NCBI GenBank assembly: GCA_028715175.1
Contig: JAQUSJ010000001.1
Span: 71,760 to 135,759, forward strand
Length of the DNA: 64,000 nt
Origin: Candidatus Daviesbacteria bacterium
Lineage (GTDB): Bacteria; Patescibacteriota; Microgenomatia; Daviesbacterales; UBA10151
Direction of reading: 5' to 3'
In this document: positions 12,950 through 53,538 of the stretch, piece by piece
How positions within the stretch are numbered: the first letter of the stretch is position 1
How the letters are laid out: every line of letters starts with the position of its first letter
Position numbers and translations under genes: made by a program
The notes under the pieces: model-generated
What the model was told of the DNA's origin: nothing
The model's input: only the letters and a program-made list of their open reading frames with translations
The model's database searches: none

Positions 12950-13111
12950 TTTAATATTTAATCAAGAGCGATGGGGAGAGTTTTGGCTCAATGATCCATC
13001 CAGCAACCGATCCAAAAGACACGGTGCTAAACCCAAGCCCGTAAGGGAAGGATTAGTCCTGAGTGCAATTGAAGGAAAACACATTTAACCTCTCTTTACG
13101 GGAGGTTTTTT
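12950..13111 (+). ncRNA. Candidate small structured RNA or leader (about 160 nt), bounded by a promoter and a strong intrinsic terminator
   Basis: There is no ORF. The segment ends in the hairpin CCTCTC-TTTAC-GGGAGG followed by TTTTTT at 13089-13111. Its class was not recognised. Confidence 0.3.
13089..13111 (+). terminator. Intrinsic terminator (6-bp stem including one G-U pair, then T6)
   Basis: Read directly. Confidence 0.6.
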
Positions 13112-13159: not shown

Positions 13160-13432
13160 GTGTTAGTAGAATTTGAAAATTCAAGTATCAGACTGAAGAT
13201 TCCTGTAGGTACAGGAAAAGATTCTGAGCAACATATTATAGAAAGGGATAAGCCTTTTGATCCGGCAATATTTGGGCTCGCACATAGATGTCCGGGAGCT
13301 CTGTCAGCAGCAATAGATCAGTTAAGGCTTCGAGCTGAAATATTAAATAATGGAGACAGAAGATTTGTCAGTCACGTGGCTGATAATTTATATGCAGCCA
13401 TTGTGGCTATTAGAAACAGTGAAGAAATATAG
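13160..13432 (+). CDS. Hypothetical protein (90 aa)
   Basis: GTG start preceded by a strong SD 'AAGGGAGG' at -8. Convergent and abutting ahcY. Confidence 0.4.
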   Translation: MLVEFENSSIRLKIPVGTGKDSEQHIIERDKPFDPAIFGLAHRCPGALSAAIDQLRLRAEILNNGDRRFVSHVADNLYAAIVAIRNSEEI

Positions 13433-21478: not shown

Positions 21479-21799
21479 ATGCCAAAATTAAAAAAGAGCA
21501 TGAGCGACAAAGTACGTATAAAACCATTAATGGGTTATTGTTTAGTTGAACCCAGTGAAGCAGAAATTAAAACCGCTTCCGGTATAATTCTTCCGGAGAG
21601 TGCCCAGGAAAAACCGGCCCAAGGGGTAGTTCTGTCTTGCGGGGATGAAATGATACTGGAAAACGGAAAAACCCTGAAGTGCCCGGTAAAAGTGGGGAAT
21701 AAAGTAGTTTATAAAAAATGGGGCGGAGATGAAATTAAAGTTGATGGTAAAGAGTTAAAACTAGTAAAATTCGACGACCTGATGGCAATTTTGGAATAA
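21479..21799 (+). CDS. groES: Co-chaperonin GroES
   Basis: 'IKPLMGYCLVEP...SGIILPESAQEKPAQGVV' Cpn10 signature. Confidence 0.85.
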   Translation: MPKLKKSMSDKVRIKPLMGYCLVEPSEAEIKTASGIILPESAQEKPAQGVVLSCGDEMILENGKTLKCPVKVGNKVVYKKWGGDEIKVDGKELKLVKFDDLMAILE

Positions 21800-21802
21800 A
21801 CT

Positions 21803-22306
21803 ATGGCAAATATAGCAGTAGAAACTAGAATAGAATTTGGAATTGATCCAACATCGGTTGCGCCTGGTTGTGTAACAACAGCCCCAGTTGAAGTCTGGAG
21901 GTATCATACGCCCTTGGCACGTTCAACAGATGGTGGGGTTTATTATTTACACAGATTAGCCGAAAACCTCCACGGTAGATATATTGGAGGATTCGAGGCA
22001 TATGAGCGACTGGTAAAAAGAGGTATAAAAAGAGATAGCAAGGATGGACTTGACGAGTATGTTCGAGAAGTGGGCAGGGCTTTTGTGAAATGGCAAGGGA
22101 TTTCAGACGACAGTATAGGATTGACAGATAGTTCAAAAGCTGCTTGCGTTCTGGGATTGGCAGCCGAAGTAGTTGATCCAGATGGAACTCCAACAATCAG
22201 GTATCTTAATCGATCAATTGGTGTTTGGAGCAGATTAAAACCGGAAGATACTGCGTTAGAATATAACAAGATAACACATAATTGGGAACCAGTAGCGATT
22301 GAGTAA
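21803..22306 (+). CDS. Hypothetical protein inserted between groES and groEL
   Basis: 167-aa ORF starting 4 nt after the groES stop and ending 11 nt before the groEL start. GC-richer composition. No motif recognised. Confidence 0.45.
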
Positions 22307-22317
22307 AAGGTAAATTT

Positions 22318-23958
22318 ATGGCTAAGATTTTAAAATTTAATTCAGAAGCAAGAGAAAAATTATTAAAGGGTATTAATACCTTAACTGAAGCTGTGGCTAC
22401 TACTTTAGGGCCTAAAGGTAGAAATGTGGCTTTGGATAAAAAATGGGGTGCTCCTAATGTGGTTCACGACGGAGTGACTGTGGCCAAAGAGATCGAGCTG
22501 GAGGATCCGTTTGAAAATATGGGAGCCCAGCTTATTAAAGAAGCAGCCAGCAAAACTTCCGATGTGGCTGGTGATGGTACTACCACTGCTACGATTTTGG
22601 CAAAAGCTATAGTCACTGAGGGTTTAAAAAATATCCAAGCAGGTTCAAATCCCATGATTTTAAAGCGCGGAGTTGAAAAAGCAGTTGTCACCTTAGTTGA
22701 GGAGCTTAAAAAAATGAGCAAGAAAATTTCCACCCAAGAAGAAGTTGCTCAAGTGGCTACGATTTCTGCCTCAGATACTCAAATAGGCAATCTTATAGCA
22801 GAAGCTCTGCAAAAAGTCGGCAAAGACGGGGTGGTGACGGTTGAGGAAGGTAAAACCATGGAAATGAATGTGGATTATAAAGAAGGAATGGAATTTGATA
22901 AAGGTTTTGTTTCCCCTTATTTTGTGACAGATACGGACAAAATGGAGTCATCCATCGAAGATGCCTATATTTTGATCACCGATAAAAAGATTTCTTCCGC
23001 ACAAGATTTGGTACCATTCCTGGAAAAATTTGTGGCTGTTTCCAAGAATCTGGTAATTATTGCTGATGAGGTAGAAGGTGAAGCTTTGGCCCTTTTGGTA
23101 GTTAATAAACTGCGCGGTACTTTCAATGTTTTGGCGGTGAAAGCCCCTGGTTTTGGCGACCGAAGAAAAGAAATGCTGGAAGATATAGCTATTTTAACAG
23201 GTGGAATGGTAATTTCTGAAGATACCGGCAAAAAGTTTGAATCAGTGGAGATTGATGAGCTAGGTCGGGCAGGCAGAGTGACCTCTGATAAAGACAATAC
23301 ATTGATTGTTGATGGTAAAGGGGCCAAGACCAAAATCGAAGCCAGAATCGCTGCTATCAGAAGAGAGCTTGCTGCCTCTGATTCGGAATTTGATAAAGAA
23401 AAACTGCAAGAAAGACTGGCTAAGCTAACAGGTGGGGTGGCAGTGATTAATGTGGGGGCTGCCACAGAAATTGAACTGAAAGAGAAAAAAGAAAGAGTGA
23501 TTGATGCAGTGGCAGCCACAAAGGCGGCAATTGAGGAAGGGATTGTGGCCGGAGGAGAGGTGGCGCTGCTTCGGGCTGGTAAAGCTTTGGACGAGATAAA
23601 TGTTGACGACTCTTCGGCAAGCTCAGGGCAAGAGGAAAAAGTCGGAGTGGCAATTGTCCGCAAAGCCCTGGAACAGCCATTCAGGATGTTAGTTAAAAAT
23701 GCCGGTATGGATGATGGAATAGCATTATCTAAAGTAGTTAGTGAAACCGGTAATATGGGTGTTGATGTTTTAGACGGGGAAATTAAAGATTTAGTGAAGG
23801 CTGGAATTATAGATCCTGTGAAAGTAACCCGCTCTGCCTTGCAGAATGCTGCATCTGTGGCAGTGATGGTCATGACCACTAATTGCCTTATCAGCGATAA
23901 ACCGGAGCCTCCAGTTCCAACTCCTCCAATGCCCCCCGGCGGGATGGGAGAATACTAA
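22318..23958 (+). CDS. groEL: Chaperonin GroEL
   Basis: '[22 protein letters not shown]', '[12 protein letters not shown]' and the C-terminal GGM tail. Confidence 0.95.
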
Positions 23959-25028: not shown

Positions 25029-25622
25029 ATGGTTAAGTTTCATTACCGCGAGTCTCCTACCGAAAAGCAAAAAAAGGCTTTCAGAAAATATTTATCTGAA
25101 GATGAAGAATTGGTTTTGGTAACCAGTCTATCTAAAGCTTATATAAGATCTAAGTTTATACTTAACTTACTTTTCCCGGGAATGCTATTTTTGGGGCTTG
25201 GTTTAGGGGTAGGATGGTTTTTTAATATTGGCAGAATTTGGGCCCTTGTTTTGGGATTAGGATTTATGTTTTTATCAGCCATACTTAAAACGATGCATGT
25301 TTATCATGCCAACAGATATTTGTTAACCACCAGAAGAGTCATTATTAAAAAAGGGTTATTCTCTGTTAAGCTGACTGCCGCACTTTTTGATAAAATTACC
25401 AATCTAGTGGTAGACCAATCGATTATTGACAGGTTGCTTTTACATCACGGTACCATTGTTGTAAATACAGCCGGAGTCAGCAAAGGAGAAATAATATTGA
25501 AATATGTGGATTCGCCTATGGAACTCAAAAATTTACTTGAAAGGTTAATTAACCGTGAAAGGGAACAATTTGGACTAAGGGGAGCTAGCTTAACAGAAGT
25601 GGAAGGAGAGATTATTACGTAG
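25029..25622 (+). CDS. Bacterial PH-domain (YdbS/YdbT-like) membrane protein
   Basis: Two TM helices followed by a bPH_2-like domain ('LLTTRRVIIKKGLFS'). Its last 26 codons lie in direct repeat A. Confidence 0.5.
   Translation: MVKFHYRESPTEKQKKAFRKYLSEDEELVLVTSLSKAYIRSKFILNLLFPGMLFLGLGLGVGWFFNIGRIWALVLGLGFMFLSAILKTMHVYHANRYLLTTRRVIIKKGLFSVKLTAALFDKITNLVVDQSIIDRLLLHHGTIVVNTAGVSKGEIILKYVDSPMELKNLLERLINREREQFGLRGASLTEVEGEIIT
25539..25616. repeat. Direct repeat A (the actual 3' end of the PH-domain gene)
   Basis: Aligned by eye with 30223-30300. Confidence 0.85.
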
Positions 25623-26472
25623 TATTAGTTTTATTTTTCTGTGCTGTAAGTATGTAATATCCCGCTTTTCCTTTTCTAAGTAACCTTTGTAAGCCAGCAA
25701 GCAGTGTTTCTATGTCTTGATGCGAACTTTCTGCATCTAAACTTTGTCCATTGGGTGAGGAATCATGATAATCTACTGGAGAGACAACATTTTCAGTTAT
25801 ATTTCTAGGATTTATACATGAAAAGCCATTTGCTAATAGAAGAGCAACTAATTCTTGTATATGAGTAATATTAGGAATATGCATGTGTGTTTTGAGCTCT
25901 GCTATGATGTCGACTTCTTCTTTTGTTAATGTATGTGGATGCATAAATATATCTGCTATTGTTATTATGCCTTTAGATTTCAAGATTCTACTTGATTCTT
26001 GTATTAAGCCTGTTTTGTCTTGAGAGTGAATAAAACTCTCACAAAAAATTATTCTATCGAAAGTTCCACTTCGAAAAGCAAGATGTTCATAGTCTTGGAT
26101 AGAGAATATAGGGCAAAACGAGTCATCTCGATCTTCATATTGACTTGCGAGATGGATATGATTTCTTGATATGTCTATCCCGTATACCCCTGCTTTTGGC
26201 TCAATGTGTTTAATTTCGAATGCTAAGGTCCCTACGCCACATCCTGCATCTAAGATGACTTGTCCAGATTTTATTTCGCTTAGTTCAATAATTCTCCGAG
26301 ACATTTGTAAAGCTGAAATGGAGTTATCTAAAGGTTCACCCCAGTCTTGTTGGTAGCCGATATGCATAGCATAAAGTCCTATTCTCTTTGGATCAGGTGA
26401 CCACTTTAAAAAAATAGGGGCTGTTTGTCTATAGAAAGTTTCTATCTCTTGACGCCTTTCATTATTAGCCAT
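25615..26472 (-). CDS. Class I SAM-dependent methyltransferase (candidate tailoring enzyme of the RiPP cluster)
   Basis: 'VILDAGCGVGTLA' motif I. Its stop overlaps the PH-domain gene stop by 8 nt. Confidence 0.7.
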   Translation of the reverse strand: MANNERRQEIETFYRQTAPIFLKWSPDPKRIGLYAMHIGYQQDWGEPLDNSISALQMSRRIIELSEIKSGQVILDAGCGVGTLAFEIKHIEPKAGVYGIDISRNHIHLASQYEDRDDSFCPIFSIQDYEHLAFRSGTFDRIIFCESFIHSQDKTGLIQESSRILKSKGIITIADIFMHPHTLTKEEVDIIAELKTHMHIPNITHIQELVALLLANGFSCINPRNITENVVSPVDYHDSSPNGQSLDAESSHQDIETLLAGLQRLLRKGKAGYYILTAQKNKTNTT

Positions 26473-26602
26473 AACTCAGACAGTATTTTATCACAGATAA
26501 TATTTACTATGGGCGATATTAATATCTTGTTTTGATAATCAGATTATGGTATAGACTTAGTAATGAATAGATTAATTCTTTTACGAAAGGAGGTGAAATA
26601 AT

Positions 26603-26788
26603 ATGAGTCATCATCCAGAACAATCAGAACAGTTGAGACGCAGTATGGCAGATGCAAAAGAATTTCGGGCTACTCAAGGCGTCAAAGGGACAAGAGCTTT
26701 TTTGTGTATGCCTCAACCTTGCGCACCGCCGCCACATCCACCGCCTTGTAAACCACCATGCTCTCCTTGCGTGGGACAGATTAAGTAG
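26603..26788 (+). CDS. RiPP precursor peptide (TOMM/LAP-like): leader plus a Cys/Pro-rich core 'FLCMPQPCAPPPHPPPCKPPCSPCVGQIK'
   Basis: 61 aa. Strong SD 'AAAGGAGGTGA' 7 nt upstream. It lies directly upstream of the YcaO gene. The C-terminal 28 residues carry six Cys. Confidence 0.65.
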   Translation: MSHHPEQSEQLRRSMADAKEFRATQGVKGTRAFLCMPQPCAPPPHPPPCKPPCSPCVGQIK

Positions 26789-26856
26789 TAAAAGGTTTTT
26801 GCAAGAAGGGGCTGAAACATATTTTGTATAATTAATTATCCTGCCGAGTGTAGAAT

Positions 26857-28161
26857 ATGAATATAAATGGTTTCTTTCAGAGGATAAGTAGGTTTGTATT
26901 GAATAATCCTAAAATTGTAAAGAGTTTCTACAAGACGCCGAATTATAATGATGAGCCTCAGCTGTATCAGTATTCTTCGCAATTTATAGATGGTAATTCG
27001 TTAAGAGTGTCAATGGATTCGATAGCTTCGGGAACATCATTTGACAAGAATAGCGCATTATTGAAACTATTGGGAGAAACAGTAGAAAGATATTCTCTTA
27101 GTATATACGATAATAGTAAATTAATTTATAGAAGTTTCCGTGAGCTAGTTTGTAAAAATAAAAATGCTTTAAATCCAACTGGACTAGCATTACTACCTCA
27201 ATTCTTCAAAGAGAACAAGAAAGAAGCCCTCTATGATATCAAATTTTACTGGGTTATAGGTAAGTCTTTAGTTACTAATAAGAATATATTGGTTCCTGCT
27301 CAACTTATTTTTGTTCCATATTCCCATTCTAAATCTGAGCCTATTCTTCAAACGCCGATATCAACAGGAGCTGCAGCAGGAGAGGCGATTTACGATGCGC
27401 TCTATAGAGGTATTTGTGAAGTTATAGAACGGGATTCTTTTATGATCCATTATTACAATAAAATAAGCTCTCCTAGAATTAATCCTTACTCTTTAAGAAG
27501 TAAGAAAATCTCAAAAATAATCAGAATATTTGAAAGGTATAATTTAGAATTATGTGTTAACGATATAACAACTGATATTGGTGTTCCTGCTGTTATAGCT
27601 ACTGTTATCGATAAAACTGGTCTGGGACCTGCTATTTGTGTTGGACTTAAGGCGGGATTTGATATGAACCAAAATGTGATTGGTGCTACTGAGGAGACTC
27701 TTATGGTTCGTTCATGGATTCGGGATGAATATATGTATTTGAAGCCTAAACATAGTTCTCCTAGGATAATTAGTACTATAGAAGAAAGAGCAAATTTCTG
27801 GTGTCCTACAAGTACAATTCATTATTTGGATTTCTGGTTAAGCACGAGAAATAACGGAGGTTCTTATAAATTATGCAAATTTAGGCGAAGTTCTTACAAA
27901 GAAAAGGTTATGGAATTGATAAGAATATTGAAATCGAAAGGGCTTGACATTATTTATATTGATATAACTGCTCCCGAAATACGTAAGTATAATGTAAAGG
28001 TGGTTAAAGTGATAATACCTCAGTTGCAGCCGGTACATTTAGATGAAAGATATCCATATCTTACTTTTCAAAGATTGTATAATGCGCCCGTAAATATGGG
28101 AATTTTAGGAAGACCTAAGACATTTGAAGAACTTAATAGTATTCCTCATCCATTTTTATGA
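26857..28161 (+). CDS. YcaO-domain cyclodehydratase
   Basis: 'SGTSFDKNSALLKLLGETVERYS' is the YcaO ATP-binding motif. 'STGAAAGEAIYDALYRGICEVIERDS' is the second conserved YcaO block. Confidence 0.8.
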   Translation: MNINGFFQRISRFVLNNPKIVKSFYKTPNYNDEPQLYQYSSQFIDGNSLRVSMDSIASGTSFDKNSALLKLLGETVERYSLSIYDNSKLIYRSFRELVCKNKNALNPTGLALLPQFFKENKKEALYDIKFYWVIGKSLVTNKNILVPAQLIFVPYSHSKSEPILQTPISTGAAAGEAIYDALYRGICEVIERDSFMIHYYNKISSPRINPYSLRSKKISKIIRIFERYNLELCVNDITTDIGVPAVIATVIDKTGLGPAICVGLKAGFDMNQNVIGATEETLMVRSWIRDEYMYLKPKHSSPRIISTIEERANFWCPTSTIHYLDFWLSTRNNGGSYKLCKFRRSSYKEKVMELIRILKSKGLDIIYIDITAPEIRKYNVKVVKVIIPQLQPVHLDERYPYLTFQRLYNAPVNMGILGRPKTFEELNSIPHPFL

Positions 28162-42189: not shown

Positions 42190-43353
42190 TTGGTCAGGTA
42201 TAATATCCACATGTTCAGATGCCGTATAGATAAAGTTAGATCACACCTTAAAAAACAAAACCTAGATGCAGTTTTGATTTCTGCTGTATCCAATATTTGT
42301 TATCTTACTGGCTATGCTAATTTTTCTCAAAATGAGCGAGAAGCATATTTAATTATTACAAAAAATGAACAATTCATCATTACCGATGGTAGGTATTCGG
42401 GTGTAATAAAAAGACAAGTCCCCTATTTTAAATTACTGGAACTAACTGGTGAAAATTCTCTTAAAAATATTTTTGCAAAGTTTGCCCGTCTTAAAGTTTT
42501 GGGGATAGAAGAAGACGAAATAACTGTTTCAGAACATAAGATGTTAAAAAAACATTTTAAGAAAATGAAGCATCTGGATATTAAATCTCACAGATCAGTT
42601 AAAACTGATGATGAGATTAGAAAAATAGAGGAAGCTGCAAAATTAGGAGATAAAGCATTTAAGTATATTTTAGGGAAAATAAAAGAAGGTATTAGCGAAA
42701 AAGAATTGGCATATGAATTGGAATTATTTATCAAGAAAAATGGAGGAGAGTTGTCTTTTCCTCCGATTATTGCTTTTGGTCGAAACTCTGCCATACCACA
42801 TCATCAAACAGGAGAAACTAAATTGGATAAAAAAGAAGGACAGTTTATCCTCCTTGATTTCGGGGTGAAACTTGAAAATTATTGTTCAGATATGACAAGG
42901 ACCATAATTTTTGGAAAACCAACTAATAAACAAAAAAGAATATACGAAACAGTACTAAAAGCCCAGCAAAAAGCGATAGATTTTATAAATTCAAAAATTA
43001 AATCAGGTAAAAAAGTTAAGGCTTCTGATGCAGATAAAACTGCCAGAGATTTTATTATTTCCCAAAAATATCCAAATATTCCTCATTCTTTGGGACACGG
43101 CATCGGTTTACAAGTGCACGAACATCCCTCTCTTTCTTCCAAAAGCCGCGATATTTTAAAGACAGGGATGGTTTTTTCGATAGAGCCGGGGATATATTTA
43201 CCTGATTTCGGCGGGGTAAGAACTGAGGATCTATTTTGCATCAGCAAAATAGTCCCGAGCGAAACGAAGGGTTTATTTGTTTTGGGAAAAAATGACTTAA
43301 AGCAGTTAACTAATTCACCGAAATCAATCATTTCCATTCAAGCGTTAAGTTGA
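42190..43353 (+). CDS. M24-family Xaa-Pro aminopeptidase
   Basis: 'HSLGHGIGLQVHEHP' and the pita-bread metal ligand pattern. Confidence 0.8.
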   Translation: MVRYNIHMFRCRIDKVRSHLKKQNLDAVLISAVSNICYLTGYANFSQNEREAYLIITKNEQFIITDGRYSGVIKRQVPYFKLLELTGENSLKNIFAKFARLKVLGIEEDEITVSEHKMLKKHFKKMKHLDIKSHRSVKTDDEIRKIEEAAKLGDKAFKYILGKIKEGISEKELAYELELFIKKNGGELSFPPIIAFGRNSAIPHHQTGETKLDKKEGQFILLDFGVKLENYCSDMTRTIIFGKPTNKQKRIYETVLKAQQKAIDFINSKIKSGKKVKASDADKTARDFIISQKYPNIPHSLGHGIGLQVHEHPSLSSKSRDILKTGMVFSIEPGIYLPDFGGVRTEDLFCISKIVPSETKGLFVLGKNDLKQLTNSPKSIISIQALS

Positions 43354-51964: not shown

Positions 51965-52580
51965 AGCTTCCAGAAGGAAATTAGGAGAACTGCGCAAGAA
52001 ATTTGATCCTGATAATGTTGTAGTTTTTGATGCTCAAGCAAGTTCAGGACAAGTAATTGCCAATTTAATGACGGTTCCTATGTTTTCCGAGGAAAGGTTG
52101 ATTATCTGGGAAAACCCAATTGATGTTTTTGAACCACCAACTACCAACTACCAACTACCAACTACTCTAATCCTATGGTTTGATCATATTATAGATACAA
52201 AAAAATGGCCGGGGTTTGAATACCTGTTTTTCCCGGAAAGTAAAGAAATTTCCGTATTTCCATTTTTGGATTATTTGGCAGCTCATGATAAAAAAGCTTT
52301 CTTAGAAGTGGAGAAATTAAAAAAAGCAAATTTCGATGTCCACTATCTCATAACTATGGTTTTTTATCTGTTGCGGAATTTGGTAGTTACTCCTAAAACC
52401 GCGCCTCCCTTTGTTAAGCAAAAACTTGCCAAACAAAGAAGTAATTTTAGCAAAGAAAGATTAATAAATCTTTACAGGGATATTTTAGAAATTGAATTTA
52501 AAATTAAGTCAGGTTTATTGGAAAAAGACCAGGCAGAATTTTTACTGGTTAATAAATTCATTGGGAGCCTAATGATTTGA
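51930..52580 (+). CDS. holA: DNA polymerase III delta subunit-like protein
   Basis: 'LLVLHGPAIEASRRKL...LMTVPMFSEERLII' resembles the HolA N-terminus. It contains heptamer array 52133-52170. Confidence 0.4.
   Translation: MKLLVLHGPAIEASRRKLGELRKKFDPDNVVVFDAQASSGQVIANLMTVPMFSEERLIIWENPIDVFEPPTTNYQLPTTLILWFDHIIDTKKWPGFEYLFFPESKEISVFPFLDYLAAHDKKAFLEVEKLKKANFDVHYLITMVFYLLRNLVVTPKTAPPFVKQKLAKQRSNFSKERLINLYRDILEIEFKIKSGLLEKDQAEFLLVNKFIGSLMI
52133..52170. repeat. Tandem heptamer (ACTACCA)x4, in frame in the holA-like gene (encodes 'PPTTNYQLPTTL')
   Basis: Read directly. Confidence 0.85.
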
Positions 52581-53538
52581 GTTTTTGAGACATCAAATCC
52601 AGATCTTTTTGATTAATTACCCCATCTGTATTAATATCTGTTTTTGCACACGATCTATTCCCTGGTAAAGCAGTATTTGGTTGTTTGCCGAAACATGAAG
52701 ACAGTATTGCATAATCGGTTGAATTTATTTTTCCGTCACTATTTAAATCATATTTATCTAAATCCTTGATGGCTGAAGGCAGCGGTGTTTCAGTAAGTAT
52801 AGTCAGATCAAGATCTTGACCTAGTTTAACGGGAGGAAGAGAAGATGAATTAGTTTGTAACTTGAAGAGGATACTTGCGTTTCCTTTGTCGGAGTTGATA
52901 GTCAATTTAGCAATTGTTTCTTCTGTTAATGGAAATACATCAGAAAGGTCTGTTTTGCGGATTTGGGCGATAGGGATCAAAAAATTGCCGCCAGACTTGA
53001 TTAAAGAAGACTGGGTTGCAGCATCCTGGATTGATAAATAAACAACGCCATCATTTAGCGGGTTATTGCCGTCTATTACAGAACCTATGACTGGTGTAAA
53101 TCCAGCCTGATTAATTAGAGGGTTTGCAGTGTCAAATTTCATTACTTCTGATATGAACTTGCCGGATGTAATTTTAAATAAATAGTTAGTGTTAGGAAGC
53201 AGGTTTTTTAGTGTCACATAATGGATTAAACGGGGTTTGGGCCTCGCACCAGACGGTGTGGGATTAGCATCCCTATCGTCTAGCACTGTTTGTTCTCCGG
53301 GATTTTTTTGGCCATAGGTGATAAAAGATTTAGTGGCAGTATTTGTTTGCCAGGAAATTACTGCCGAATCATCCGTGATGTTCGTAATAGCAACATCTCG
53401 TGGAGTCAAATCAGGTGCGGCTTGTGACAAAAAAACTTGCTCTCTTAAAACTAAATAAAGCCCGCTTATTATTCCTAGAATGATTATACTTAAACCAAGA
53501 AGCGTTGGTATTTTAAATTTGTTGAAGAAATTTGTCAT
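52558..53538 (-). CDS. Secreted protein with FN3/purple-acid-phosphatase-N-like domain and C-terminal dockerin-type repeats
   Basis: N-terminal TM. 'DLNSDGKINSTDYAIL' and 'DINTDGVINQKDLDLM' are dockerin/EF-hand-like pairs. Confidence 0.5.
   Translation of the reverse strand: MTNFFNKFKIPTLLGLSIIILGIISGLYLVLREQVFLSQAAPDLTPRDVAITNITDDSAVISWQTNTATKSFITYGQKNPGEQTVLDDRDANPTPSGARPKPRLIHYVTLKNLLPNTNYLFKITSGKFISEVMKFDTANPLINQAGFTPVIGSVIDGNNPLNDGVVYLSIQDAATQSSLIKSGGNFLIPIAQIRKTDLSDVFPLTEETIAKLTINSDKGNASILFKLQTNSSSLPPVKLGQDLDLTILTETPLPSAIKDLDKYDLNSDGKINSTDYAILSSCFGKQPNTALPGNRSCAKTDINTDGVINQKDLDLMSQKLKSLGSQ

Follow-up and report, generated by a model that had tools for sequence, protein, structure and literature searches.

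A proline- and cysteine-rich peptide gene beside a partner-less YcaO–SagB cassette of Candidatus Daviesbacteria: a probable precursor of a linear azole-containing peptide

The locus described here raises the question of whether a very small open reading frame (ORF), which ends shortly before a gene for a YcaO-type enzyme, encodes the substrate of that enzyme and, if so, what kind of peptide would be made from it. The locus lies in a 64,000-nucleotide stretch of contig JAQUSJ010000001.1 (assembly GCA_028715175.1), hereafter the window, from Candidatus Daviesbacteria, a member of the Microgenomates group of the Patescibacteria or candidate phyla radiation (CPR). An earlier note, made from the letters of this stretch, had singled out a 61-amino-acid (aa) ORF as the precursor of a ribosomally produced, post-translationally modified peptide (RiPP) with an unusual proline-rich core. 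On the evidence given below we consider it likely that this ORF codes for a precursor from which a linear azole-containing peptide (LAP), a RiPP of the thiazole/oxazole-modified microcin (TOMM) type, is made through the pathway that we propose. Coordinates of all features are collected in Table 1.

The ORF was found with exactly the quoted sequence, and 68 nt separate its end from the start of the YcaO gene (position 26857), so that it does lie immediately 5' of that gene as the note had said. The textbook Shine-Dalgarno (SD) sequence ahead of it, described there as rare in the window, matches in all 10 of 10 positions, which holds for no other of the 57 ORF starts checked; the next best match is 6 nt long, and in 44 of the 57 a match of at least 4 nt is absent within 20 nt of the start. 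SD usage is very weak across the window, with a strong signal at the precursor gene alone; the homologous precursor genes of two related loci (L081 and L084) are likewise preceded by a strong and similar SD sequence. Eleven of the twelve Pro residues of the peptide fall in its final 28 residues, as had been counted, but the six Cys reported for this part were a miscount and the real number is five (C35, C40, C49, C53 and C56). Pro stands directly before four of the five Cys and two positions after four of the five, giving a P-C-x-P pattern, while none of the five is directly followed by Pro. A six-frame scan of the window returned no other stretch with at least four Cys and at least eight Pro in 28 residues. 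The gene has a G+C content of 49% versus 38.5% for the window, and neither Pfam nor NCBIfam holds a model that matches the peptide. The spacer between the precursor and YcaO genes was scanned for promoters and terminators and folded as RNA, and nothing in it exceeded shuffled background; an attenuator between the precursor and the enzymes is unsupported.

A search with the peptide as a single sequence retrieved only itself, and homologues were reached through YcaO synteny first and profile searches afterwards. About 300 YcaO homologues were found at E < 1e-20, the top named ones being from Patescibacteria, and an alignment of 28 of these proteins (A1) was used to collect 80 genome and 80 metagenome loci (160), in which small ORFs ending just 5' of each YcaO gene were listed by script. 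Of the loci that allowed this search, about 60% have a small ORF directly 5' of YcaO. In the loci nearest to the window (YcaO 39%–73% identical) the small ORF at this position has an xDAKEF leader and, 10–20 residues on, a tail rich in Pro and Cys. First scans of the loci gave 27 distinct precursors with DAKEF and a Pro/Cys tail, a precursor profile search of a 5.8-billion-sequence collection gave 31 proteins, and an exhaustive hidden Markov model (HMM) search of 1.84 billion cluster representatives (50% identity) gave 38 at E ≤ 0.001, all of 58–95 aa. In total about 60 distinct homologues are known, directly 5' of orthologous YcaO genes in Microgenomates-group Patescibacteria. The earlier note had named a lack of conservation in related cassettes as the observation that would speak against its proposal of a RiPP precursor gene beside YcaO; dozens of loci proved to carry homologues in that very position.

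The nearest relatives of the peptide are P0132, P0172 and P0173, and the first two have in common with it the blocks MS-PE, MADAKEF[QR], [KR]A[FY]LC and a C-terminal C[KR]PPC[SA]PCVG. The precursors of two related loci read MSRPEQRESNMADAKEFQVGRQGIKEARALLCTPQPPPPPRCRPGPPPLCSPCRLDK (L081) and MNRSEQFDPGMADAKEFQVPNNPKGAKAFLCSPQPCAKPCKCTPCKPAPCKPPCSPCVGLSRQ (L084). When the window gene was compared with those of L084, L081 and L082, 31–36 aligned residues were identical and about half of the corresponding codons were synonymously changed, while the remaining two forward frames are interrupted by stops in L084 and L081. The precursor ORF is thus a real gene under purifying selection at the level of the protein. 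An overlapping ORF in an alternative frame (26652..26831) was ruled out, since its frame contains stops in both relatives checked. The division into an N-terminal leader and a C-terminal core, as the note had drawn it, agrees with the family, in which a near-invariant DAKEF lies N-terminally and a variable Pro/Cys-rich part C-terminally. D17 and F21 are invariant in both precursor alignments, K19 is conserved at 90% or more in both, and E20 is invariant in alignment A3; in the sub-clade of the window the leader stretch before the first Cys ends in a conserved [KR]-A-[FYL]-L-C. One relative (L082:241-399) has an in-frame stop just before the precursor start, with a remnant upstream that reads SRPEQLAE, and its leader is shortened to MGRGMTDAKEF with the DAKEF motif and core intact, which suggests that residues N-terminal to DAKEF are dispensable.

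The composition of the cores sets the family apart from the classical pattern. In 26 Pro-rich cores, Pro accounts for 35% and Cys for 21% of residues, Pro stands before 51% of the Cys, and Arg or Lys follows 39% of them. By comparison, the cores of 37 other precursors, which lie beside more distant YcaOs of the same family, contain Cys, Gly and Ser at 27%, 19% and 13%, with Ser, Gly or Asn before Cys and Gly after it, and follow the classical TOMM pattern. The contrast that the note had drawn with Gly/Ser/Cys-rich TOMM cores is thus found within a single YcaO family. In a neighbor-joining tree of the YcaO proteins those that go with Pro-rich precursors, bar one borderline case, fall in a single clade, which also includes three DAKEF precursors with shorter Pro runs, whereas the Gly-rich precursors belong to sister clades; core type and enzyme have thus diverged in step. 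The leader co-varies with a further gene: a D-x-[KI]-E-F motif is accompanied by a downstream M16 peptidase gene in 26 of 29 assessable loci with the motif and in 4 of 19 without it, in a count that ignores relatedness.

These observations bear on the proposal that the small ORF is an unmodified Cys/Pro-rich protein (for instance metal-binding or disulfide-rich), or otherwise a non-substrate, and that YcaO and SagB act on another protein. Some archaeal and proteobacterial YcaOs do act on substrates other than RiPPs (PMC8442711), and in sub-clades L012 and L098-L104 the YcaO, SagB and M16 genes occur without a Cys-rich small ORF 5' of YcaO. Against this, a small ORF in which the leader is conserved and the Cys-rich tail varies holds its position immediately 5' of YcaO over YcaO identities from 100% down to about 30%, its core type co-varies with the YcaO clade, and conservation of a leader motif beside a variable Cys-rich part is the RiPP pattern. 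We regard a non-substrate role as very improbable.

The enzymes encoded next to the precursor are those expected for azole formation. An AF2 model of the 434-aa YcaO (pLDDT 87.5, pTM 0.91) matched LynD, MusD and TruD best in the PDB (TMq 0.77–0.80 for LynD), and also archaeal YcaOs and McbD; the YcaO fold accounts for all 434 aa, with no additional RiPP recognition element (RRE) or E1-like domain. Residues E74/E77/R78 and E188/E191/R192/D193, which we take to be the published ATP motif, are invariant in the 28 homologues, and the C-terminal IPHPF aligns with the Pro-rich C-terminal PTPMPF of TruD. Residues 95–245 of the SagB-type dehydrogenase align with McbC and place K195-Y196 opposite McbC K201-Y202, the Lys-Tyr pair being described as catalytic in McbC-type dehydrogenases (PMC8442711). 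The SagB gene adjoins that of YcaO in nearly all of the 160 loci, and at 260 aa, close to the 272 aa of McbC, the protein offers no space for an additional RRE.

Thioamides and amidines are also among the products of the YcaO superfamily (PMC7136475; PMC8442711), and the YcaO of the window might instead carry out such other backbone chemistry, or leave unoxidised azolines, with no polythiazole as the result. The second-best NCBIfam match of the protein is indeed the McrA thioamidation YcaO, although far below cutoff, and Pro-Cys is an unusual context for cyclodehydration. In a later survey CPR YcaOs were assigned to the thioamidation of methyl-coenzyme M reductase (PMC12153355), a reading that the window cassette, with its SagB partner and the Cys-rich precursors, does not fit. 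The protein passes the curated model of SagD azole maturases, no TfuA was found in the window, and the SagB with its Lys-Tyr pair is coupled to YcaO in translation and conserved alongside it in nearly all loci; moreover, Cys alone is enriched in all cores of the family. For these reasons we hold a different chemistry to be improbable, if less so than a non-substrate role.

For the preferred reading, maturation of a LAP, we propose the following pathway. The strong SD sequence would ensure high translation of the 61-aa precursor, whose leader, with its conserved MADAKEF motif, would direct the peptide to YcaO. The enzyme would use ATP to cyclodehydrate the core Cys, and possibly also Ser54 in the CSPC motif, onto the carbonyl of the residue before; for four of the five Cys this residue is Pro, and prolyl-thiazolines would result. 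The SagB-type flavin mononucleotide (FMN) dependent dehydrogenase would then oxidise the thiazolines to thiazoles. The co-transcribed M16 peptidase may cleave off the leader within the 13-residue stretch that separates DAKEF from the first Cys, and the divergently encoded S-adenosylmethionine (SAM) dependent methyltransferase may add a methyl group. The finished peptide would presumably be exported and bioactive.

Several points weigh against this proposal. No product has been observed. BalhCD and other studied cyclodehydratases favour a small residue, for example Gly, ahead of the Cys that is cyclised, so that with Pro at -1 the substrate context would be new for cyclodehydration. The leader-cleaving role of the M16 peptidase and its cleavage site are guesses, and no exporter or immunity gene was found in the cassette. 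Lastly, characterised azole-forming LAP YcaOs usually need a leader-binding partner that is E1-like (C) or ThiF-like (F) (PMC7136475), and no C/F domain (E1-like/ThiF-like, RRE) was found in ORFs of at least 158 aa across the window.

The same need for a partner speaks for a rival in which the precursor and its chemistry are unchanged and the DAKEF leader is bound by a C/F-type RRE partner from another part of the genome, which activates YcaO in trans. The window is 64 kb long and its contig about 744 kb, and a partner gene is present in archaeal relatives within this YcaO family: a TIGR03603 (SagC family) gene lies directly 5' of YcaO in 11 of the 160 loci (L018, L028, L040, L045, L058, L072, L115, L119, L120, L127 and L157; for example L028:3865-4941), where YcaO is 30%–39% identical to that of the window. 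Several of the 11 genes also score above the cutoff for TIGR03882, "TOMM precursor leader peptide-binding protein", and those loci with organism names are from Bathyarchaeota, Aenigmatarchaeota and haloarchaea. On the other side, tblastn and HMM searches of the window from the archaeal partners gave no match, no partner lies beside YcaO in any locus with a Cys-rich small ORF directly 5' of it, and operon-external partners are unusual in such compact cassettes. We consider a partner acting in trans to be the strongest of the rivals but still unlikely. The YcaO family thus includes cassettes with and without a partner gene, and that of the window is, by its gene content, of the partner-less kind. 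From the lack of a locally encoded partner we infer that YcaO and/or SagB would recognise the leader directly and independently of a partner.

Some related loci differ in arrangement. In the neighbor-joining tree some of the partnered archaeal YcaOs nest among partner-less CPR ones. The sub-clade of L012 (L012:2818-7054) and L098-L104, with YcaO 40%–43% identical, encodes, in this order, M16, a 255–258-aa protein without an NCBIfam match, YcaO and SagB. In L073 and L075-L080 (for example L073:3687-5888), labelled Saccharibacteria, Paceibacterota or Gammaproteobacteria, SagB and YcaO are both matched by one ORF of ~520–730 aa, which points to a fusion of dehydrogenase and cyclodehydratase. The Patescibacteria-type cassette is also carried by many GTDB representative metagenome-assembled genomes (binchicken, SRP co-assemblies) titled "uncultured Gammaproteobacteria" or "Pseudomonadales" (L002, L004-L006, L011, L012, L014 and others); these titles look like placeholder or erroneous labels and not like evidence of horizontal transfer.

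The favoured interpretation, a LAP made by YcaO and SagB, can be carried further, although we regard the extended form as doubtful, and as a weaker proposal than that of a partner in trans. A minimal YcaO and dehydrogenase azole synthetase in a Microgenomates clade would read DAKEF without an RRE or E1-like partner and make prolyl-thiazoles from Pro-Cys repeats. The products would be rigid, cationic, polyproline-like polythiazoles, a LAP scaffold not yet characterised, which might act on the exit tunnel of ribosomes in the hosts of these episymbiotic bacteria, or in their competitors, in the manner of proline-rich antimicrobial peptides (PrAMPs) or phazolicin. The ribosome as target is speculation from compositional likeness to PrAMPs and from the exit-tunnel binding of klebsazolicin and phazolicin.

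Table 1. Position in the window of the precursor gene, its signals and parts, and the genes of the cassette
Feature	Position	Strand	Description and evidence
Precursor peptide gene	26603..26788	+	61 aa plus stop, MSHHPEQSEQLRRSMADAKEFRATQGVKGTRAFLCMPQPCAPPPHPPPCKPPCSPCVGQIK; translation, homologues 5' of orthologous YcaO genes, pattern of synonymous changes
Shine-Dalgarno sequence AAGGAGGTGA	26587..26596	+	10/10 match, 6 nt before the precursor ATG
Leader recognition motif (predicted), M15-A-D-A-K-E-F21 (family consensus xDAKEF)	26645..26665	+	Conservation in two alignments; co-occurrence with downstream M16
Putative core region, residues 34-61	26702..26785	+	Five Cys, eleven Pro and a single Ser; net charge of about +2; AFLCxPxPC and C[KR]PPC[SA]PCVG blocks common to L084, P0132 and P0172
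YcaO cyclodehydratase, single-domain SagD-type, 434 aa	26857..28161	+	PF02624 E=2e-52; TIGR03604 247.8 bits, cutoff 219.25
SagB-type FMN-dependent azoline dehydrogenase, 260 aa	28158..28940	+	TIGR03605 134.7 bits, cutoff 78.4; start overlaps the YcaO stop
M16 metallopeptidase, putative leader peptidase, 429 aa	28927..30216	+	Peptidase_M16 and M16_C; intact HFLEH zinc motif at residue 50; start overlaps the SagB end
Class I SAM-dependent methyltransferase	25615..26472	-	Methyltransf_31/11/25; divergent from the precursor

The M16 gene lies 3' of SagB in 21 of 26 Pro-rich loci, and its product is 42%–81% identical in most of the closest loci. Homologues of the methyltransferase were found at the same divergent position in L001/L081, L084, L086 and L090, all within the sub-clade with cores starting [FY]LC or FNC; the nearest solved structures are generic class I small-molecule methyltransferases, with no specific relative among them. 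It is probably an accessory tailoring gene of the sub-clade of the window, a role that we assign with less confidence than those of the other components. The remaining flanking genes of the window are conserved in no related locus. A bPH_2 protein and a 331-aa ORF upstream were considered as members of the cluster and ruled out, because neither is conserved in a related locus.

The other genes scanned in the window look like ordinary cellular ones (groES/groEL, tRNA synthetases, cell-wall enzymes). An Xaa-Pro aminopeptidase/prolidase-type M24 protein (Creatinase_N and Peptidase_M24; 42190..43353, +), encoded 12 kb from the cassette, is probably housekeeping, and would be relevant if Pro-rich peptides need trimming. 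Between 21479 and 23958 (+), groES (21479..21799) and groEL (22318..23958) are split by a 167-aa ORF without a Pfam match (21803..22306), an unusual insertion in an operon that is normally tight. The only Rfam match was an unrelated SAM riboswitch (RF00162, 49.7 bits; 12956..13058, +); a 90-aa ORF with a GTG start (13160..13432) comes after it on that strand, while an S-adenosylhomocysteine hydrolase gene converges on the opposite strand. A 326-aa protein (52558..53538, -) combines a purple-acid-phosphatase N domain, fn3 and a type I dockerin, which is unusual for a CPR genome.

If the LAP reading is true, azoline-forming YcaOs accept Pro at -1, which would give a Pro-thiazole repeat scaffold of constrained geometry. 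The YcaO and dehydrogenase would then form a natural, compact, partner-less pair for studies of RRE-independent leader recognition and for peptide engineering. The product would be one of few defined secondary metabolites of the CPR, whose reduced genomes retain the cassette across many lineages. The existence of the system was already known; what is added here is the definition of a precursor family with its motif, together with the lack of a partner. The candidate is well suited to heterologous expression and holds no conceptual surprise.

Compared with known systems, the cassette shares with microcin B17 (McbBCD), streptolysin S (SagBCD), plantazolicin, klebsazolicin and phazolicin the YcaO (D) and FMN dehydrogenase (B) components and a leader-core precursor. 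The genetic features that define LAP/TOMM clusters were found in a SagD-type YcaO with its acidic motifs and Pro-rich C-terminus, a SagB with the Lys-Tyr pair and an adjacent leader-core precursor, with the exception that an E1-like (C) or Ocin-ThiF-like (F) RRE partner is absent from the 64-kb window. The cassette further differs from classical members in a core with 35% Pro in place of a Gly/Ser-rich one, in an M16-type peptidase, and in the lack of an ABC exporter or immunity gene. The cyanobactin heterocyclases LynD, TruD and MusD are the nearest solved structures and sequences to the YcaO (E about 1e-18), but at about 780 aa they have a fused N-terminal E1-like/RRE half, whereas the window protein consists of the 434-aa domain only. 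PatA/PatG-type, S8 or DUF-type cyanobactin proteases and macrocyclisation signals were not found in the window, where M16 is the only peptidase of the cluster. In place of the TfuA of thioamitide and other TfuA-dependent YcaO systems, the window has the SagB dehydrogenase. Unlike bottromycin-type stand-alone YcaOs, for which a C-terminal follower is expected, the conserved motif (DAKEF) is N-terminal here, and C-terminal tails either vary or are missing. Archaeal representatives of the YcaO family (Bathyarchaeota, Aenigmatarchaeota and related groups, and haloarchaeal "haloazolisin"-like loci) have homologous YcaO-SagB pairs, 30%–39% identical to the window YcaO, and retain the SagC/TIGR03603 and TIGR03882 gene directly 5' of YcaO, while Patescibacteria with the Cys-rich ORF do not; the haloazolisin cyclodehydratases of Cox et al. 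(2015) are divergent fused enzymes (PMC4603692). With PrAMPs (oncocin, Bac7, apidaecin) the family shares a cationic Pro-rich composition, and PRP-like stretches are found in several of its members, a likeness of composition only. PrAMPs are themselves unmodified and without Cys. They bind the ribosomal exit tunnel, as do the LAPs phazolicin and klebsazolicin (PMC7136475).

The closest published counterpart is that of Sharrar et al. (2020, mBio; PMC7298704), who described in Microgenomates_ANG_785 a LAP cluster in which YcaO, with an 84-aa precursor beside it, is accompanied by a nitroreductase and a peptidase, and reported 110 such clusters in 93 further CPR genomes, the nitroreductase adjoining YcaO in 89. 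The window has this same set of YcaO, nitroreductase and peptidase, with a precursor beside YcaO, in a CPR genome, and matches those clusters in gene order, taxon (Microgenomates/CPR) and predicted function. The cluster type in CPR is already published as a bioinformatic prediction, and the system of the window is not new as such; the "new RiPP scaffold" of the earlier note can hold at most for the Pro-Cys core family. In the portions of that paper available to us only Ser and Cys are highlighted in the 84-aa precursor, with no mention of a Pro-Cys composition, DAKEF, a missing C/F partner or a methyltransferase. Our literature search returned nothing on the Pro-Cys core family, the DAKEF leader, the absent C/F partner or any product, and beyond Sharrar et al. 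(2020) nothing on Pro-rich LAP cores, Pro before a cyclised Cys or experimental work on CPR LAPs. New in comparison with these systems are the small, clade-restricted Pro-Cys precursor family with its conserved DAKEF leader motif, a YcaO-SagB pair that is partner-less, the occurrence of M16 together with the leader motif, and the methyltransferase conserved in the sub-clade of the window.

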